A DNA stretch of 64,000 nt, taken from Minisyncoccia bacterium (GTDB lineage: Bacteria > Patescibacteriota > Minisyncoccia > Phycocordibacterales > UBA9973). The notes under the pieces were generated by a model. The model saw nothing but the letters and a program-made list of their open reading frames with translations, did no database searches and was not told the DNA's origin. The stretch covers positions 128,453-192,452 of the forward strand of contig JBAQFO010000014.1 in NCBI GenBank assembly GCA_049287305.1, in the 5' to 3' direction. Position 1 is the first letter of the stretch, and each line of letters begins with the position of its first letter. Shown piece after piece: positions 2,179 through 14,464 of the stretch. The position numbers were made by a program, and so were the translations under genes.

Positions 2179-5093
2179 TTCATTGAATTAGAAAATTTAT
2201 GATAAATAATATGGAGTTTTTTTACGTTTGTTTCGACTACTTTATTTTTGTCGGTAATAATAAACTTATCGTTATTTGTGACCTTGCCCAGCATGGTGTG
2301 CGGTATGTTCTTCACGACTTTTAGGAATGCAGAGACATTTTTAGGAGATACAGAAACCAATATCCTTCCTTGGCTTTCGGAAAATAGTTTTACTTCCGCG
2401 GAATTTGCCCCTCCCTGTAAATTTTTGATGGAAATATTGCATCCAATCATTCCTCCAACTAATGCCTTTGCAAGCGCTATTGCTAATCCTCCCGAAGTCA
2501 CTGAAAGCGAAGATGCTGCCAGTTCTTTTTGACTAATTTTTTCTACAGCTTTGTATATTTTTATATTTTTTACGGCATCAACTTTTGGCACGTTATTGCC
2601 GACATAACCCAGCATCTTGTAATATTCTCCCCCACCAAGCTCGTCATTAGTTTCTCCCAGCACATAAATTAAATCCCCAGGATTTTTAAATTCAGGTGAG
2701 ATAGTTTTATTTAAATTAGGCATTACCCCAATCGCGGATATTAAAAGAGTGGGGGGAATAGATATAGCCACCGAATTTCCACTTTCATCGTAGCCGTTAA
2801 AATCATTAAACATACTGTCCTTTCCGGAAATAAAAGGCGTGCCATAGCTTAGGGCGTAGTCGTAACATGCCCGGACCGCGCTTAAAAGCTGGCCTAAGCG
2901 CACGGGGTCTCCCGATGAACACCAGCAAAAGTTGTCCAGTATTGCCAAATGAGACATTGTGCCGCCGGACGCCACGGTGTTTCTAATGGCAGTATCAATC
3001 GCGCAAGCAGCCATATCATAGGTATTTATGTCTCCATAAGAAGGATAAGAACTTGAAGTAACAACGGCAGCTTTGGGGGAATTTAATATCGGGTGGAATA
3101 CTTGGGCGTCAGTATTGATGCGTCCTCTGCCAGAAAGGGGTTTAAGAACAGAGGAGGCTTGCACTTCGTGGTCGTATTGTTCCGAGATGAATGAAAATCC
3201 GGCAATATTTTTACTTCCCAGCAACATTTCCAATTCTTCGGTGTATGAATTTTTATTTGAAAATGTCGGCTCGGGATGGTTATGAATAACGGGTGCTGTA
3301 AATAATTGCTGTGAAGGTCTGCCGTCATGCAGGAATCCCATATCAATATCCATAATTTTTTTACCCGTGTATTTTACAATACATTTTCCCGAATTATTAA
3401 ATTTCCCAATAACAGTTGCTTCCACTCCCCTTTTGTCCATTAACTCCTGAAATATTTTCCAGTTATTTTTCGGCACAGAGAGAGTCATTCTTTCTTGTGA
3501 TTCAGAAATCCAAATTTCCCATGGACGAAGCCCCAGGTATTTTAAAGGAACTTTTTCTAAGTCCACCTCCACTCCCCCACACTCTTTTGCCATTTCAGCA
3601 ACCGAGCAAGACAATCCTCCGGCACCGTTGTCGGTGATACTGGTGTATAAGCCCATATCTCTCGCTTCTTTAGCAATCGCATCGCTTAATTTTTTTTGAG
3701 TTATGGGGTCTCCTATTTGGACAGCCGTTGCCGGAGAATTTGAATCCATTGCTACTGATGAAAACGTGGCTCCATGAATCCCATCCAAACCCACCCTTCC
3801 GCCAACCATTACGACATAATCCCCATTTTGTGCTGTTTTAAGATGAGAAGGCGCATTTTTTACTTTCCGAGGGATAATTCCTATAGTTCCGGCAAAAACT
3901 AGTGGTTTGGCGCGGTATCTGTCGTCAAATTTCAAAAAACCGGAAAGAGTCGGAATGCCTGAGCAATTTCCGCCAACGTTTATGCCTTTTATAACTCCGT
4001 CCATGATACGTTTCGGGGGAAGCATAGCTTGTGTCATCGCCCTATCCTTAAAATATTTTGTATCGTCTTCGGGCCGTCCCAAACAAAACCCGTAAAGGTT
4101 GGCGACAGGCCTTGCTCCCAATCCGAAACCAATGGTGTCCCTATTTACTCCGCCTATTCCCGTTATGGCTCCGCCAAAAGGGTCTAGAGCTGACGGGCTA
4201 TTATGAGTTTCTACTTTGTGGGTAATTAGATAATCTTTATCAAAAACTATCCCTCCGGAGTTGTCGGAAAATACCGATACGCAAAAATCTTTTTCTCCTT
4301 TTTGTTTTCGTATTAAATTTGTAGCGCCTTTGATGTATGTTTTATAAAGTCCGTCCACCACATCGTCTATCGGGTTGGCGAAAATAGTGTGTTTGCAATG
4401 CTCCGACCAAGTTTGCGCCAAGGATTCTATTTCAATATCTGTAGGGTTTCTTCCTAGCTCTGTAAAATATCTTTGAATTGCTTGCATTGACGGCAAGTCA
4501 AGAGCGAGCGGACCTCGTCGCTGCCCCTTCTCGTCTTTGACTCCTTCTTTGCCTATCCGCATCAACTCTTCTTCTCCTTCCGAAGCAATCGGAATTTCTA
4601 TAACGGGTTTGGATTTTTCAAGGATTACTTCCGGCGCCACCAGCGGAAAACCTTTTTTGTTTTTGATTTCACTAAAGTTTGCAACATAAGCTCTTTCTAT
4701 AAGAGGATTATAGAGAGACAAAGCCAACTTCTCCAGCTCACCTTCGTCTAGTTTTTCCGTAACTAAGAAAATTTTCGAAGTATAAACTTCCAGGGGGTCA
4801 CTACCCTTGAGGCCTAAAAGGTCAACAATTGTTTCCTTTGCGGTGTGTCCTGCGTTATCTGTCACCCCGGGCTTAAATCCGATTTCAATAGCGTGATGGA
4901 ATTTACCAACTTGAGGAAAAGAGTCTATGGAAAAGATTTCTATGGTGGGATTTGTGAGAGCTTGGGCGACCTTCTGTAATTTTTCCTTGCCTAATTTGTG
5001 GGTGATTAGATAGGATAAGACGGCGCTATTCTTAGCAAGACTTTTGTTTTTCGCCACGTATATCCGAGAAATCATATAGCTATAATATAGCAT
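2175..5093 (-). CDS. purL: Phosphoribosylformylglycinamidine synthase subunit PurL with a fused PurS-like N-terminal region
   Basis: FGAM synthase motifs SEHCKHTIF and KVETHNSPSALDPFGGAITGIGGVNRD. 972 aa with an N-terminal GVTDNAGHTAKE PurS-like segment. No purQ is adjacent. Confidence 0.8.
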   Translation of the reverse strand: MLYYSYMISRIYVAKNKSLAKNSAVLSYLITHKLGKEKLQKVAQALTNPTIEIFSIDSFPQVGKFHHAIEIGFKPGVTDNAGHTAKETIVDLLGLKGSDPLEVYTSKIFLVTEKLDEGELEKLALSLYNPLIERAYVANFSEIKNKKGFPLVAPEVILEKSKPVIEIPIASEGEEELMRIGKEGVKDEKGQRRGPLALDLPSMQAIQRYFTELGRNPTDIEIESLAQTWSEHCKHTIFANPIDDVVDGLYKTYIKGATNLIRKQKGEKDFCVSVFSDNSGGIVFDKDYLITHKVETHNSPSALDPFGGAITGIGGVNRDTIGFGLGARPVANLYGFCLGRPEDDTKYFKDRAMTQAMLPPKRIMDGVIKGINVGGNCSGIPTLSGFLKFDDRYRAKPLVFAGTIGIIPRKVKNAPSHLKTAQNGDYVVMVGGRVGLDGIHGATFSSVAMDSNSPATAVQIGDPITQKKLSDAIAKEARDMGLYTSITDNGAGGLSCSVAEMAKECGGVEVDLEKVPLKYLGLRPWEIWISESQERMTLSVPKNNWKIFQELMDKRGVEATVIGKFNNSGKCIVKYTGKKIMDIDMGFLHDGRPSQQLFTAPVIHNHPEPTFSNKNSYTEELEMLLGSKNIAGFSFISEQYDHEVQASSVLKPLSGRGRINTDAQVFHPILNSPKAAVVTSSSYPSYGDINTYDMAACAIDTAIRNTVASGGTMSHLAILDNFCWCSSGDPVRLGQLLSAVRACYDYALSYGTPFISGKDSMFNDFNGYDESGNSVAISIPPTLLISAIGVMPNLNKTISPEFKNPGDLIYVLGETNDELGGGEYYKMLGYVGNNVPKVDAVKNIKIYKAVEKISQKELAASSLSVTSGGLAIALAKALVGGMIGCNISIKNLQGGANSAEVKLFSESQGRILVSVSPKNVSAFLKVVKNIPHTMLGKVTNNDKFIITDKNKVVETNVKKLHIIYHKFSNSMK

Positions 5094-10166: not shown

Positions 10167-10475
10167 TCAAGAATACTTTCTTACGCCTTCTTTTTTTAAA
10201 AGCGCAAGTTTGGTTTTCACTCCACCCTTGCCAGAATATCCGCCAAGGGCGCCATCGCTTCTTACAACCCTATGGCATGGGATTTTAGGAGCTAACGGGT
10301 TGGCTCCTACGGCATTTGCTACCGCCCGCACCGCGCTAGGCTTGCCAATGCGTCTGGCGAGTTCTTTGTAAGTTACCGTCTCCCCTTTCTTGATGCGCAA
10401 AAGCGCTCCCCATACTTTCTTTTGAAAAACAGTGCCTTTTAACTTTTCAATATCTGATTTATTAATTTTTTTCAT
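10167..10475 (-). CDS. ogt: Methylated-DNA-protein-cysteine methyltransferase, single-domain form
   Basis: TVTYKELA...IPCHRVV active-site motif. Confidence 0.75.
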   Translation of the reverse strand: MKKINKSDIEKLKGTVFQKKVWGALLRIKKGETVTYKELARRIGKPSAVRAVANAVGANPLAPKIPCHRVVRSDGALGGYSGKGGVKTKLALLKKEGVRKYS

Positions 10476-10586
10476 GGTTATTTATTTTTCAACATAGGCA
10501 TAAGTCTATTTTATCACAGCCATAAATTCCGGCAGTGTTTCCATTGGAATTACCTTATAGCGCTGCCACTCATGCAAAATGTTTTA

Positions 10587-11219
10587 TTATTCTACCAAAA
10601 CTGCGCTCACGACAAGACGCTCATCATGAGTCCGATATTCTTTGAGCCACGCCCCAGTGCATGTGATCAACCTCAAGATTTTTCCTTCTCTTATTCTGAA
10701 TATTTCCGGCACATTTTCGTTAAAATCATAAATTTCTGAGCCTGTAACCCTAAAATGTAGTCTTTTATTTTCGTCTGTGGTTATATAAATATCGTCGCCT
10801 TCTTTTAGATTTGAAAGCTTACTAAACACTGCCGGCAAGGATAAGCCATTATCCACATGCCCTGCTATTACCGCGCTTCCTATATTTCCGGGAACTGTCC
10901 CGTATTTATACCAGCCAACATTTCGAAAACTCCTCGGCGTAGCCATGTTTCCCTTTGCAGTTATTCCGACCTTTTGTATATCTGCATTAACGTTAATTTT
11001 TGGTATAGACAGAGCTATCGGATAACCTTTTGGAACTTTTTTTACCGCTTCTTCTTGCAAGCTCGCTGATTCCGAAGTTTCTAAAGGAATACCTATACTC
11101 ACTAAAGGCAATGGGATTTCGTCTGAAGGCGCATAAAAAACCGCATTTGAAAGGACCACCGCAAAAATGATAAGGGCTATGGTGACAACTATTATTAAGT
11201 GGTTTTTCTTGAGTTTCAT
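10587..11219 (-). CDS. Sortase (transpeptidase)
   Basis: N-terminal TM segment. IAGHVDNG (His) and LITCTGAW (TLxTC Cys) motifs. Confidence 0.75.
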   Translation of the reverse strand: MKLKKNHLIIVVTIALIIFAVVLSNAVFYAPSDEIPLPLVSIGIPLETSESASLQEEAVKKVPKGYPIALSIPKINVNADIQKVGITAKGNMATPRSFRNVGWYKYGTVPGNIGSAVIAGHVDNGLSLPAVFSKLSNLKEGDDIYITTDENKRLHFRVTGSEIYDFNENVPEIFRIREGKILRLITCTGAWLKEYRTHDERLVVSAVLVE

Positions 11220-11294
11220 TATTTATTAAAAATAATATCACCACAGAGGAAAAGACGGAAGCCTTATAAATGACAACCGTCTTTTCACTCGTGA

Positions 11295-11774
11295 TTAATA
11301 CTTTCGGGAAGGTTGGTTTAGGTAAATAAATCCAAGAAAAGCTATTAACCCTGAAACAGCCAGGAGGAGAATGTTGTTAAGCGCATTGCCTCCGTATCCT
11401 GTTGTCGGCAAACCCGGAGAATACACTGTCCCGCCGCCTGGCCCAAAGGTAGCTCCGTTACATACCCAGCCATTTATGATGCTGTATCCGTATATGGATG
11501 AACATCCATTCAGATAAGGTATAGCGACTGGTCCGCCGCTGCATGGCGACCCACTTACAACACTATATCCTAATGCGGAAGAACATCCGGGCAAGAATCC
11601 CATGTAGGCAGTCGAATTGCCATTACAAGAGTTTCCAGTAGTTACACTGTAGCCAAGACCGGAGGCACAGCCTGAAGGAAAGGAAGCAGTCTGAGCACTC
11701 GCGCTTGGTGCGCCCATGAGGCCAAAAACACCCAAAACAAACGCTAAGGATAGAATCAAAGAATAAATTTTCAC
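11295..11774 (-). CDS. LPXTG-anchored surface protein with three Cys-pair repeats
   Basis: Signal peptide. Three ~24-aa repeats of form GC-SxLGYS...G..C-G. C-terminal LPTTG, then a hydrophobic stretch, then an RKY tail. Confidence 0.7.
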   Translation of the reverse strand: MKIYSLILSLAFVLGVFGLMGAPSASAQTASFPSGCASGLGYSVTTGNSCNGNSTAYMGFLPGCSSALGYSVVSGSPCSGGPVAIPYLNGCSSIYGYSIINGWVCNGATFGPGGGTVYSPGLPTTGYGGNALNNILLLAVSGLIAFLGFIYLNQPSRKY

Positions 11775-11879
11775 TTTATTTTATAAGGCTAATAATAATT
11801 AAACAACGAATGGAGCCAACTTCGACTATTGTTGATTTCCATTTACTATATAAGACGATGTTGACCTTATTTTATTACA

Positions 11880-12584
11880 TTAATTTTCTTCCTCTTCGTC
11901 AATCCCGCTTTCTCCCCGAGCTCTTTCAAGCACAGACTCCAGGGCGTCTTTAGTCGAATCGCTCTCATATGAGTTCTCTTCTTTTTTTATTTGTTCCCTT
12001 ATCTTCTCTATTTTTTCTGAGTGTCTCTGAAGCTTTGACTCGAGTTCTGTTTCCAGAAATTCTTTCTCATAATTTTCTTTGCGCAGTTCGGCTTTTTTAT
12101 TTTTTATTTCTCTTATATTTTCATCAAAATCACCGAGGTTTTTCTGGATATCTTTCTCTAGTTTCTTGGTATTTTTTTTATTGAGTCTTCCTTTTTCTGC
12201 TAGTTTTTCAAATTCGTCTACCCTCCTTTCTATTTTTCTAGAATTATCTTTAGCTTTGCTTTCAGCGCTTCTGTGAAAAACAGCGGGGATTTTTTCAACG
12301 ACATTTGTTTTTACGCCGTAAAGCAAGTCTCCCGGCAGAGTGTCCAGGGAGGCAAAAGCAGTCGCGCTAGTGAGGGACAATATCAGTCCAGCCAGAATAC
12401 CAACCTTAACGTATCTGCTCTCTAGTAAAAAAGAAAATCTGAAGAAAGGACTAGGAGTTGAATATTTAAGCTTGGTATCAGAGCTTTCCTTTTTTATAGA
12501 AGTGGAGATACGCTCAAATAGACTCCTTTTTTCGGAATCCGATAGTGTGATTTCTTTTAATTTTTTAAATTCCTTCATTTTCAT
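11880..12584 (-). CDS. Putative anti-sigma factor / DUF5667-like single-pass membrane protein
   Basis: Sits immediately downstream of the ECF sigma gene. Has one TM helix and a K/E-rich coiled-coil ectodomain. The arrangement is common in Firmicutes and CPR. Confidence 0.45.
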   Translation of the reverse strand: MKMKEFKKLKEITLSDSEKRSLFERISTSIKKESSDTKLKYSTPSPFFRFSFLLESRYVKVGILAGLILSLTSATAFASLDTLPGDLLYGVKTNVVEKIPAVFHRSAESKAKDNSRKIERRVDEFEKLAEKGRLNKKNTKKLEKDIQKNLGDFDENIREIKNKKAELRKENYEKEFLETELESKLQRHSEKIEKIREQIKKEENSYESDSTKDALESVLERARGESGIDEEEEN

Positions 12585-12594
12585 TGTTTTATTT

Positions 12595-13110
12595 TTAGGC
12601 GTGAAGTTTTGATTTCAAGATACGCAAGCCTCTGTTGATTCGAACCGAAATAGTGTTGGCTGATTCTCCCAGAATAACGGCGATTTCTTTAGGAGTCAAT
12701 TCCTCAACAAATCGTAGATATATCGCTTCTCTGTATATGGGCTCCAGGCTGGCAATTTTTTCCTTCGCCATCTTGGCTTCAAGTAAAACATCTACGCCGA
12801 CAACATTTCCGTCAAACATATCCAGATACAGCTCTTTGTCCTCTGAATTTTCCCCGGGGAAGCTTTGTAGCGGCAAACTCTTCTTTTTCCTATACCAATC
12901 TATCACGAGATGTCTGGCGATTCGGTAAAGCAGGGCGCGTGGCTCATCAACTTTTTCTTTTTGCAGAGTCTGCCAGAAACGCAAATAGGTATCTGCCACT
13001 ATATCCATCGCCTGCTCTTTATCCGACACTCTATATAAGACAAAGCGGAAAAGGCCATCTGTGTTGTCGGCGTAGGCTTTTTCAAAGATTTTTTCTATGG
13101 ATAACTTCAT
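12595..13110 (-). CDS. RNA polymerase sigma factor, ECF subfamily
   Basis: Region 2 (RHLVIDWYRKK) and region 4 helix-turn-helix (LTPKEIAVILGESANTISVRINRG). Confidence 0.8.
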   Translation of the reverse strand: MKLSIEKIFEKAYADNTDGLFRFVLYRVSDKEQAMDIVADTYLRFWQTLQKEKVDEPRALLYRIARHLVIDWYRKKKSLPLQSFPGENSEDKELYLDMFDGNVVGVDVLLEAKMAKEKIASLEPIYREAIYLRFVEELTPKEIAVILGESANTISVRINRGLRILKSKLHA

Positions 13111-13296
13111 ACATGCAGACGATTAACGGCTCGGATACTTACTTATACTAGCATCAAATTTGTAATTATCCATTAATTTCAATCTAGGTAGTCAAATACG
13201 ATTTTGTCAGTAAGTATTTCTACCTTCTTTCGTCTGTGCTTTTAGGAGGATAACCTTTCCATCTTCCTAAGCATTATTAGTTAACATAAAAATATT

Positions 13297-14118
13297 ATGA
13301 AAAACAAGCAAAGTATCGCAACAGGTTTTGTTTTGTTAGCCTTATTGGGGGTGGGTTTAATTTCAACCCCGGCAATGGCGGACAATGAAAACAAAGGAAG
13401 TTCCAAAGGTTTTCTTAATGCCCAAGCTTCTTTAAAAGCCGATGCATTTATGAAAGCTGAAAATGCAACGGGTGTGGTTTTGGGTTCAAATAACTCGCTT
13501 AGAGTTATGGGGGCAAAAGTTACATCAGTTTCCGGAAGCGATATAAGCGCTACGGTTCCTTTCGGGAATAGTTCTCTTAACTTTGTTGTAAAGACAGATG
13601 CAGAGACTAAGTTAAACGGTAAAGTATTATCAGGCGCGTCCGCCCTAGCCGGGTTAAAAGCCGGAGACAAAATTAGCTTTGGCGGAACAATAACCTCTTC
13701 AACAAGCTCGTCAATAGTCGTTGACGGAGACCATGTAGTAAGTCAAGCTCTTTACGGAGGAATAAAATTAGAAGATAAAACTTCTTTCCAAGGTGAAGTG
13801 AAAGCGGTGAACTCTACCGACAGTTACTTTACTCTTAAACTTAAGAGTGGAGTAAGTGTTAAAGTCCTGATTTCAAGCTCAACTGTTATTACTTTAGATG
13901 GCGCAACTAAGCCCCTTTCTTCTCTGGAAGAAGGAGATGAAGTAAGACTAACAGGTGAATTGAATTCTGACGGAAGCGTGATTACTGCTTCCAAGGTCTC
14001 AGCTGAAAGCGAAGATAGTGACGACGAAGAAGACGATAACGATAATGACGACAAGGATGGAAGAAAAGAATTCAGAGGCGGTTTTTGGGGTAAAATCCAA
14101 AATTGGTTCTGGAGATAA
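13297..14118 (+). CDS. Secreted protein with acidic D/E-rich C-terminus
   Basis: Signal peptide MKNKQSIATGFVLLALLGVGLISTPAMA. Tail DDEEDDNDNDDKD...FWGKIQNWFWR. Confidence 0.5.
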   Translation: MKNKQSIATGFVLLALLGVGLISTPAMADNENKGSSKGFLNAQASLKADAFMKAENATGVVLGSNNSLRVMGAKVTSVSGSDISATVPFGNSSLNFVVKTDAETKLNGKVLSGASALAGLKAGDKISFGGTITSSTSSSIVVDGDHVVSQALYGGIKLEDKTSFQGEVKAVNSTDSYFTLKLKSGVSVKVLISSSTVITLDGATKPLSSLEEGDEVRLTGELNSDGSVITASKVSAESEDSDDEEDDNDNDDKDGRKEFRGGFWGKIQNWFWR

Positions 14119-14179: not shown

Positions 14180-14464
14180 TTATAATTTTTCCTCAGCTTT
14201 GAAAAGTTCCATAATACTGCCCACAGCTTGACCGATTGCTAGGTCGTCGGCTTTCATATCCAATGATTTCTCGGTTGTGGCCTTTAGATAATTAAAAACC
14301 ATTTCATGAGAAATATCTCCTTTTTCATACATTGAAAAAATTTCGGCAGCGTAAGCATCATATTCCCTACGAGCATCAGGCATATCCGACACGCCTAAAG
14401 GGTCCCAATCTTTCAGTAAAATTGCGCTTATTTCTTTTATTAAAATTTCATTTTCGGGAGGCAT
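14180..14464 (-). CDS. Hypothetical protein
   Basis: 94-aa ORF with a protein-like composition. No recognisable motif. Confidence 0.35.
   Translation of the reverse strand: MPPENEILIKEISAILLKDWDPLGVSDMPDARREYDAYAAEIFSMYEKGDISHEMVFNYLKATTEKSLDMKADDLAIGQAVGSIMELFKAEEKL

Follow-up and report, generated by a model that had tools for sequence, protein, structure and literature searches.

A shared predicted promoter points to control of a dedicated sortase–substrate pair by a neighbouring ECF sigma factor in Minisyncoccia

Introduction

In Streptomyces, the sigma-BldN/RsbN system activates the chaplin genes, and the long chaplins are anchored by sortase (PMC4255298). Here, we describe a locus of a Minisyncoccia bacterium (GCA_049287305.1, contig JBAQFO010000014.1) for which this system would be the closest working analogy, and one of function only. 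The locus lies in a stretch of 64,000 nucleotides (contig positions 128,453 to 192,452), hereafter the window, and comprises genes for an extracytoplasmic function (ECF) sigma factor, a membrane protein with a DUF5667 domain, a small LPXTG protein with cysteine-pair repeats (the substrate) and a sortase. Our analysis suggests that these genes belong to two functionally linked modules, an autoregulated sigma factor with its DUF5667 partner and a divergent DUF5666 gene, and an LPTTG protein with its own sortase that would be under control of the sigma factor; we assign this reading a probability of roughly 0.6.

Other described systems bear on the locus as well. The classic architecture of ECF promoters, known from Bacillus subtilis SigX, SigM, SigV and SigW, combines an xGxAAx-type -35 element with a CGTC -10 element at a spacing of 16 nt, the Bacillus consensus being TGxAAC-N16-17-CGTx, and autoregulation is typical of ECF sigma factors. 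In B. subtilis YhcS–YhcR and Bacillus anthracis SrtC with BasH/BasI, the sortase gene adjoins its own substrate gene and depends on a non-housekeeping sigma factor. Chaplin domains are weakly charged and contain cysteine.

The locus resembles the Streptomyces system in its ECF sigma factor with an adjacent membrane (anti-sigma) partner and in a small secreted surface protein that would be fixed by a sortase; the target in the window is likewise small, free of charge and cysteine-containing. It differs in that the substrate matches neither the chaplin domain nor any other Pfam family, the sigma factor scores 57.7 bits against a BldN-family cut-off of 206, LPTTG and a class-F-like sortase stand in place of the chaplin LAxTG and class E sortase, and the sortase gene adjoins the substrate gene.

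The resemblance to the B. subtilis ECF sigma factors extends to a protein of about 170 aa with regions 2 and 4 only, a membrane protein gene downstream, partial similarity to their hidden Markov models (HMMs), and an autoregulated promoter, here predicted, in which about 16 nt separate an xGxAAx -35 element from a CGTC -10 element. In contrast to the Bacillus consensus, the -35 element ends in AAG or AAT instead of AAC; scores against the named sigma families fall well below the cut-offs, the partner is a DUF5667 protein without a ZAS/RsiW-type domain, the sigma mRNA is predicted to be leaderless, and a DUF5666 gene lies divergently. With the class F sortases of Actinobacteria (Cutibacterium acnes SrtF) and with housekeeping sortases, the window sortase shares the fold family, the H-C-R triad, an N-terminal membrane anchor and an LPXTG-type substrate, but it belongs to a clade specific to Patescibacteria (>470 homologues) and has one small dedicated substrate instead of many. 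Finally, a dedicated sortase–substrate gene pair and control by an alternative sigma factor, predicted in our case, recall YhcS–YhcR and SrtC–BasH/BasI, which however involve class D sortases, LPNTA-type signals, sporulation sigma factors and large enzymes or unrelated substrates.

Results

The features on which the argument rests are the following.

12595-13110, minus strand: ECF (group 4) sigma factor of the sigma-70 family, 171 aa, with Pfam Sigma70_r2 and Sigma70_r4_2 and a match to TIGR02937
11880-12584, minus strand: DUF5667 single-pass membrane protein (PF18915), 234 aa, candidate anti-sigma partner
11295-11774, minus strand: sortase substrate, 159 aa, GTG start, with a signal peptide (residues 1-27), three 28-aa cysteine-pair repeats, LPTTG, a transmembrane segment and SRKY
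10587-11219, minus strand: membrane-anchored sortase (PF04203), 210 aa, closest to class F
13297-14118, plus strand: divergent secreted DUF5666 protein (PF18914), 273 aa, member of the sigma module
13118-13143, minus strand: predicted autoregulatory ECF promoter of the sigma gene, AGTAAG-N16-CGTC, a GTAA-N17-CGTC site conserved in relatives
11854-11879, minus strand: predicted ECF-type promoter of the substrate gene, TGTAAT-N16-CGTC, directly after the DUF5667 stop codon
13209-13234, plus strand: predicted ECF promoter of the DUF5666 gene, AGTAAG-N16-CGTC, a GTAA-N17-CGTC site conserved in L007, L030 and L031
11240-11295, minus strand: strong terminator-like hairpin with a U-rich tract in the gap between substrate and sortase genes, from folding against shuffled sequences

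The four minus-strand open reading frames (ORFs) are present and co-directional as the first-pass annotation had described them, which had also called them tightly spaced. Such spacing holds for the sigma and DUF5667 genes (10 nt), whereas the gaps between the DUF5667 and substrate genes and between the substrate and sortase genes measure 105 and 75 nt. Homologues are numerous for all four proteins, and identical substrate and sortase sequences are deposited at NCBI in records of Minisyncoccia metagenome-assembled genomes (MAGs), so that the four ORFs are real genes and not chance reading frames. The deposited records also place the window in Patescibacteria, class Paceibacteria/Minisyncoccia.

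The link between the two modules is carried by the predicted promoters. The core GTAA-N17-CGTC occurs at exactly three sites in the window (1.04 expected), upstream of the sigma, DUF5666 and substrate genes, and thereby also upstream of 13110 and of 11774, where the first-pass annotation had placed its hopes for an ECF target promoter. The fuller element of the substrate gene, TGTAAT-N16-CGTC, has its sole exact match in the 64 kb at 11854-11879. In relatives (loci with L or P numbers) the same element lies 50–170 nt upstream of the substrate start, with or without a nearby sigma gene. It is exact in 9 of the 22 substrate loci and agrees in at least 9 of 10 positions in 14 of them, while only 2.4% of 2,444 control windows of 200 nt reach 9/10 (binomial P about 6e-18). 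The site of the sigma gene ends 7 nt before its ATG, and L007, L023, L030 and L031 have the same element at the same distance; with 6–7 nt between CGTC and ATG, the sigma mRNA would be leaderless. The site of the DUF5666 gene is kept in position and sequence in L007, L030 and L031. Variants occur as well: L027 has CGGC in the promoters of its sigma and its substrate gene alike, and in L023 the element at the group-1-like sigma gene reads TGTAAG. We infer that the sigma factor recognises (A/T)GTAA(G/T)-N16-CGTC, and the predicted promoter, autoregulatory and shared with target genes as in members of the ECF family, would link the sigma module with the substrate–sortase pair and supports sigma control of the pair. 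For Patescibacteria, in which no paper that we found describes an ECF promoter, the predicted element is new.

Additional TGTAAT-N16-CG(T/G)C sites are present in L003 (252-276 and 1211-1235), L022 (1966-1990) and L030 (7812-7837). The genes behind them encode a 259-aa secreted protein, a DUF4342 protein, an 83-aa membrane protein and a 389-aa fn3-like protein, and are candidate members of the same ECF regulon; that motif-bearing genes in relatives encode small membrane or secreted proteins fits an envelope regulon. By eye, the 83-aa protein looks like the GlsB/YeaQ stress membrane proteins. In L007 (3647-3669), AGTAAG-N16-CGTC overlaps the called sigma start, and an ATG at 3669 gives an N-terminus matching the window sigma, so that the annotated start is probably 22 nt too far upstream. 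A scan for the sigma-70 consensus yielded weak matches only (9/12). We also considered a hairpin in the 5' untranslated region of the substrate gene (about 11809-11843, minus strand), composed of ATGGAAATCAAC, a loop with AGTCGAAG, and GTTGGCTCCAT, which by eye looks conserved in L007, L011 and L001 and in L001 shows what seem to be compensatory changes (AAGGA/TCCTT); as its stability does not exceed that of shuffled sequences (z -0.3 to -1.6), it was rejected.

What do the relatives tell about the arrangement of the genes? We compared 22 distinct loci with substrate homologues for which DNA is available and one further locus with gene calls only (23 in total). A co-directional sortase gene directly follows the substrate gene in 20 of the 22, the exceptions being L010 and L029, which strongly supports the earlier proposal of a dedicated sortase substrate. 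The sigma and DUF5667 genes, however, lie directly upstream and co-directional in only 3 of the 23 loci (the window, L007 and the P0003 locus), and L030 and L031 hold the divergent gene, the sigma gene and the DUF5667 gene without the substrate–sortase pair. The direct coupling of the sigma factor to the pair that the first-pass annotation had claimed is supported by the shared predicted promoter and not by gene order. Seven of the 23 loci have a sigma gene no more than about 1.1 kb upstream of the substrate gene, in four arrangements: co-directional with DUF5667, co-directional without it (L022, L027), divergent (L003), and divergent with DUF5667 (L023). A single inherited arrangement would hardly account for this recurrence. 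The 64-kb window contains no second sigma gene.

In L011, which lies on the same contig as L014 and encodes a substrate 73% identical to that of the window, the last ~40 DUF5667 codons remain (1551-1652; ELESKLKRHSEKIEKIREEEGEDALESVLERVRSLRND) directly before a substrate promoter of the form CGTAAT-N16-CGTC, and three short direct repeats (GTCCTTGCTAGGCA-like) precede this remnant. Either a deletion of the sigma and DUF5667 genes in that lineage or an assembly artefact would account for it.

The sigma factor matches Sigma70_r2 with 42.2 bits and Sigma70_r4_2 with 45.1 bits, and its score against the ECF superfamily model TIGR02937 (64.1 bits, cut-off 42.9) places it among the ECF sigma factors. 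None of the named ECF families in NCBIfam (SigW, SigX, SigM, SigV and the BldN family) claims it, with best scores of 55–69 bits against cut-offs of 126–260. Orthologues in L030 and L031 are 73–79% identical. The DUF5667 gene follows the sigma gene in L007, L023, L030, L031 and the P0003 locus as well, and its product (35.8 bits against PF18915, cut-off 27) has a conserved N-terminal stretch of ~55 aa, one transmembrane segment (about residues 58-78) and an extracytoplasmic coiled-coil region with the motif TLPGDLLYGVK at its start. A single-pass protein with a cytoplasmic N-terminus, encoded directly downstream of a sigma gene, has the position and topology of an anti-sigma factor, and on these two grounds it is plausible that the DUF5667 protein acts as anti-sigma partner of the adjacent sigma. 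The zinc-binding motif HxxxCxxC does not occur in its sequence, and we found no paper mentioning DUF5667. The divergent DUF5666 protein scores 28.1 bits against PF18914 (cut-off 27), and a divergent homologue adjoins the sigma gene in L007; in L030 and L031 a divergent gene of ~265–270 aa takes the same position, the likeness being one of size and position only. The C-terminus of the window protein consists of a strongly acidic tract, SEDSDDEEDDNDNDDKD, and an aromatic tail, GFWGKIQNWFWR.

The sortase scores 80.6 bits against PF04203 (cut-off 26.6). Its residues H121, C187 (in LITCTG) and R201 are the same in all 20 homologues compared, and the histidine and cysteine align with those of solved sortases (PDB 4d70). 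Classification by HMM, as the first-pass annotation had proposed, gives class F as the best NCBIfam model (NF033748, 115.6 bits, against 35 for class E, 33 for D and 31 for C), although this score stays below the curated cut-off of 166 bits; an NCBI record labels the identical protein a class F sortase, and we regard class-F-like as its best description. Of the more than 470 homologues, all with a source name come from Patescibacteria MAGs. A long hairpin with a U-rich tract behind it forms in the gap that separates the substrate gene from the sortase gene (-30.7 kcal/mol, z -6.9; none of 200 shuffled sequences folds as well); because of its 18-nt loop, it escapes a standard terminator call. 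Among 20 loci, 13 have a hairpin at this place that is likewise built from an A-tract, a stem and a T-tract but differs in sequence. In L016, L018, L021 and L023, the sortase gene begins within the substrate gene or directly at its end (TAATG in L016 and L018), implying that the two are transcribed together there. The most economical reading of the hairpin is a leaky terminator that would yield much substrate and little enzyme.

The substrate carries an N-terminal signal peptide predicted to be cut between ASA and QT, and its C-terminus consists of LPTTG, 22 mainly hydrophobic residues and SRKY, as in an LPXTG substrate. The mature protein of 97 aa is rich in glycine (20), serine (16) and tyrosine (7), lacks D, E, K, R and H altogether and has a grand average of hydropathy of +0.26. 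Its three repeats, GCASGLGYSVTTGNSC, GCSSALGYSVVSGSPC and GCSSIYGYSIINGWVC, have a period of 28 aa and follow the formula GC-x-S-x-x-GYS-x3-G-x2-C; the first-pass annotation had thus correctly counted three cysteine-pair repeats, and the spacing between GYS and G is x3 rather than its x4. The paired cysteines stand 13 residues apart in each repeat, which suggests one disulfide per repeat, with C36-C50, C64-C78 and C91-C105 as the predicted pairs. Clustered at 90%, the family numbers 63 members, and all with a source name are from Patescibacteria. They are uniformly about 160 aa long with three (sometimes four) repeats and six invariant cysteines, and 58 of 59 have [LF]PxTG. Charge is low throughout, with family means of 0.15 Lys, 0.44 Arg and 1.5 Asp+Glu per mature domain, and 50 of the 59 members have no mature lysine at all. 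Without lysine, the mature substrate offers no nucleophile for an isopeptide bond, and lysine-isopeptide pilus polymerisation is excluded. An assignment as pilin was rejected also for want of a pilin motif, on the score of the sortase against the class C model (31 bits, cut-off 160) and because the locus has one sortase gene; the pilus-tip-like role suggested by the first-pass annotation falls with it. The Pam pilus preprint deals with unrelated proteins.

Two side observations concern the sequence around the cysteines. The residues C-N-G-T (substrate residues 105-108, about 11451-11462, minus strand) after the second cysteine of repeat 3 are invariant or nearly so in the family alignment, and N-x-S/T sequons follow the cysteine pair in most repeats (1–3 per family protein); these conserved sequons may be a glycosylation site or simply an element of the fold. 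In L005 (2306-5232), the substrate gene lies between two sortase genes, and a VKOR (disulfide-bond) gene is found ~1.3 kb upstream, a proximity that fits oxidative folding of the cysteine repeats. Sortase together with DsbA/MdbA-like and VKOR disulfide machinery is common or enriched in genomes of the candidate phyla radiation (PMC6744442).

In agreement with the earlier view of the repeat as unclassified, the substrate has no match in NCBIfam or in Pfam, the mature domain not even at E <= 10, which includes the chaplin domain and known wall-binding domains (PG_binding_1, LysM, SH3b and others). A PDB profile search with the repeat found no sequence relative, a Foldseek search of PDB with a low-confidence model of the substrate gave no match, and we found no paper on this substrate family. 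A profile search among 1.84 billion representatives nevertheless returned 389 matches, many of them proteins of 200–1675 aa with arrays of the same 25–30-aa unit (P-x-GC-x-S-x-x-G-[YFW]-S-x-x-x-G-x-x-C), up to ~10 or more per protein. PG_binding_1 is present in 17 of 20 large repeat proteins scanned, usually just N-terminal to the repeats, and is a neighbour of the repeat distinct from it; CARDB, PKD, TIG, BACON or Kre9-like Ig-type domains occur in these proteins too. Protein P0202 has two Big_2 domains, then three repeats and then LPTTG. Like the substrate, the large PG_binding_1 proteins are secreted and wall-associated, but their attachment is mostly non-covalent and they include Ig-like domains, whereas the substrate holds the repeat triplet alone on a covalent LPXTG anchor. 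From this distribution we describe the repeat as a recurrent module, apparently close to the wall, in surface proteins of Patescibacteria; the window substrate consists of this module only.

PADLOC reports no defence-system match among the five locus proteins, and Rfam has no match at E <= 1 in the region 10400-13400. At 10167-10475 (minus strand), a homologue of O6-methylguanine methyltransferase of just 102 aa is reduced to DNA_binding_1, the catalytic C-terminal domain; the N-terminal domain that normally accompanies it is missing. A 94-aa ORF at 14180-14464 (minus strand) adjoins the DUF5666 gene and has no match in Pfam or NCBIfam.

Discussion

How could the two modules work together? We propose that an envelope signal would free the sigma factor from the DUF5667 protein, and that the freed sigma factor would then transcribe its own gene, with the co-transcribed DUF5667 gene, as well as the genes for the DUF5666 protein and the substrate. 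The majority of transcripts from the substrate promoter would end at the hairpin, and the sortase, made by read-through, would be less abundant. With the substrate exported and its signal peptide removed behind ASA, its three cysteine pairs would be oxidised, and the sortase would cleave between LPT and TG to link the 97-aa, charge-free, Gly/Ser/Tyr-rich module of three repeats to peptidoglycan. The outcome would be an uncharged, disulfide-stapled layer or spacer on the wall. The repeat adjoins PG_binding_1 or an LPXTG anchor in larger proteins, which argues for the small protein as a wall-embedded or wall-proximal structural element. Most likely, its role is that of such an element, remodelling the envelope surface, and not that of a pilus subunit.

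Several observations weigh against the proposal of two modules linked by the sigma factor. A good promoter motif is missing in 8 of the 22 substrate loci, and substrate genes consistently have TGTAAT as -35 hexamer, where the sigma genes of group 1 and the DUF5666 genes have AGTAAG or TGTAAG. The sigma factors beside the substrate gene in L003, L022 and L027 form a subgroup only 30–36% identical to the window sigma, so that a paralogous sigma factor could be the true regulator here. Both modules share a conserved housekeeping neighbourhood (Dus, holB-like ... DoxX, IMPDH, adenylosuccinate synthetase), and part of their proximity may therefore be inherited synteny. Neither the DUF5667 protein nor its 22 homologues contain a zf-HC2, RskA or similar anti-sigma domain in Pfam or NCBIfam; as the homologue search yielded 22 close orthologues only, it lends the anti-sigma role no independent support. 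Two AlphaFold2 runs on the substrate, with 23 and 61 sequences, reached a pLDDT (predicted local distance difference test) of 57 and 60, with no fold assigned. Promoters, leaderless start and termination are predictions from sequence, and the searches of this genome for the promoter motif and for sigma genes cover 64 kb.

Could the four genes instead be a single operon, as the first-pass annotation had it, with one transcript from the sigma promoter and an obligate sigma-controlled display unit? Their common direction would agree with this, and the same gene order recurs in two relatives with 73–75% substrate identity. The sequence behind the DUF5667 gene showed no terminator-like hairpin, and transcription from the sigma promoter would therefore probably run on into the substrate gene. 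However, the substrate gene has a conserved promoter of its own, also in loci without a nearby sigma gene, the hairpin of -30.7 kcal/mol stands before the sortase gene, and the arrangement is confined to 3 of 23 loci, each module occurring without the other as well. Because of this internal promoter, the hairpin and the variable synteny we reject the single operon as the main model and consider it very improbable. More can be said for the view that adjacency is inherited and that the substrate promoter is read by a paralogous ECF sigma factor encoded elsewhere, of the subgroup seen in L003, L022 and L027. The divergence of the two subgroups, their different -35 hexamers and the common neighbourhood of the modules all point in this direction, as does the group-2 sigma gene of L027, which carries TGTAAT-N16-CGGC like the substrate gene of that locus. 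Against it stand the core GTAA-N17-CGTC, common to all three sites and found nowhere else in the window, the lack of a second sigma gene there, and the observations that L030, with a group-1 sigma, has TGTAAT-N16-CGTC before another surface-type gene, that the group-1-like sigma of L023 carries TGTAAG, and that no locus holds both subgroups. On balance we regard a paralogous regulator as unlikely.

A different objection concerns the small protein, which might serve attachment to host cells, either as an adhesin or as a pilus subunit assembled by sortase. Patescibacteria are largely episymbionts whose surface proteins are expected to mediate attachment, and the repeat does occur in large surface proteins together with Ig-like, CARDB, PKD or TIG domains. 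In those proteins, however, the repeat adjoins the wall anchor and the Ig-like domains are the likely binding parts; the mature domain measures only 97 aa, the isopeptide nucleophile is absent in 50 of 59 family members, and class F fits the sortase better than class C (116 against 31 bits). We think there is little chance that the protein serves in attachment in this way. The reading of two modules joined by a predicted ECF promoter, with the small protein as a structural element of the wall, remains the one we favour. A bolder, joint version would hold that the repeat is a new, Patescibacteria-specific module that interacts with the wall or with itself, that the substrate forms an ECF-induced, chaplin-like, charge-free coat, and that DUF5667 and DUF5666 constitute a new signal-sensing module of ECF sigma factors; that all of this should be true together seems doubtful. 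If it were, the coat would alter the charge, hydrophobicity or accessibility of the wall in envelope stress or host contact, and would be the functional counterpart of the sigma-BldN/chaplin system in ultrasmall bacteria.

In conclusion, the individual parts of the locus, an ECF sigma factor, a sortase and an LPXTG protein, are ordinary, and its value lies in the predicted link between them and in the uncharacterised repeat. Patescibacteria make up a large share of bacterial diversity, while their gene regulation and envelope construction are barely known experimentally. For this phylum, the locus offers a concrete ECF promoter consensus, (A/T)GTAA(G/T)-N16-CGTC, together with the small regulon that it predicts; DUF5667 and DUF5666 as candidates for a new pair of anti-sigma factor and sensor; and a conserved minimal sortase substrate made of an unclassified repeat with predicted disulfides that recurs in many large surface proteins of the phylum.

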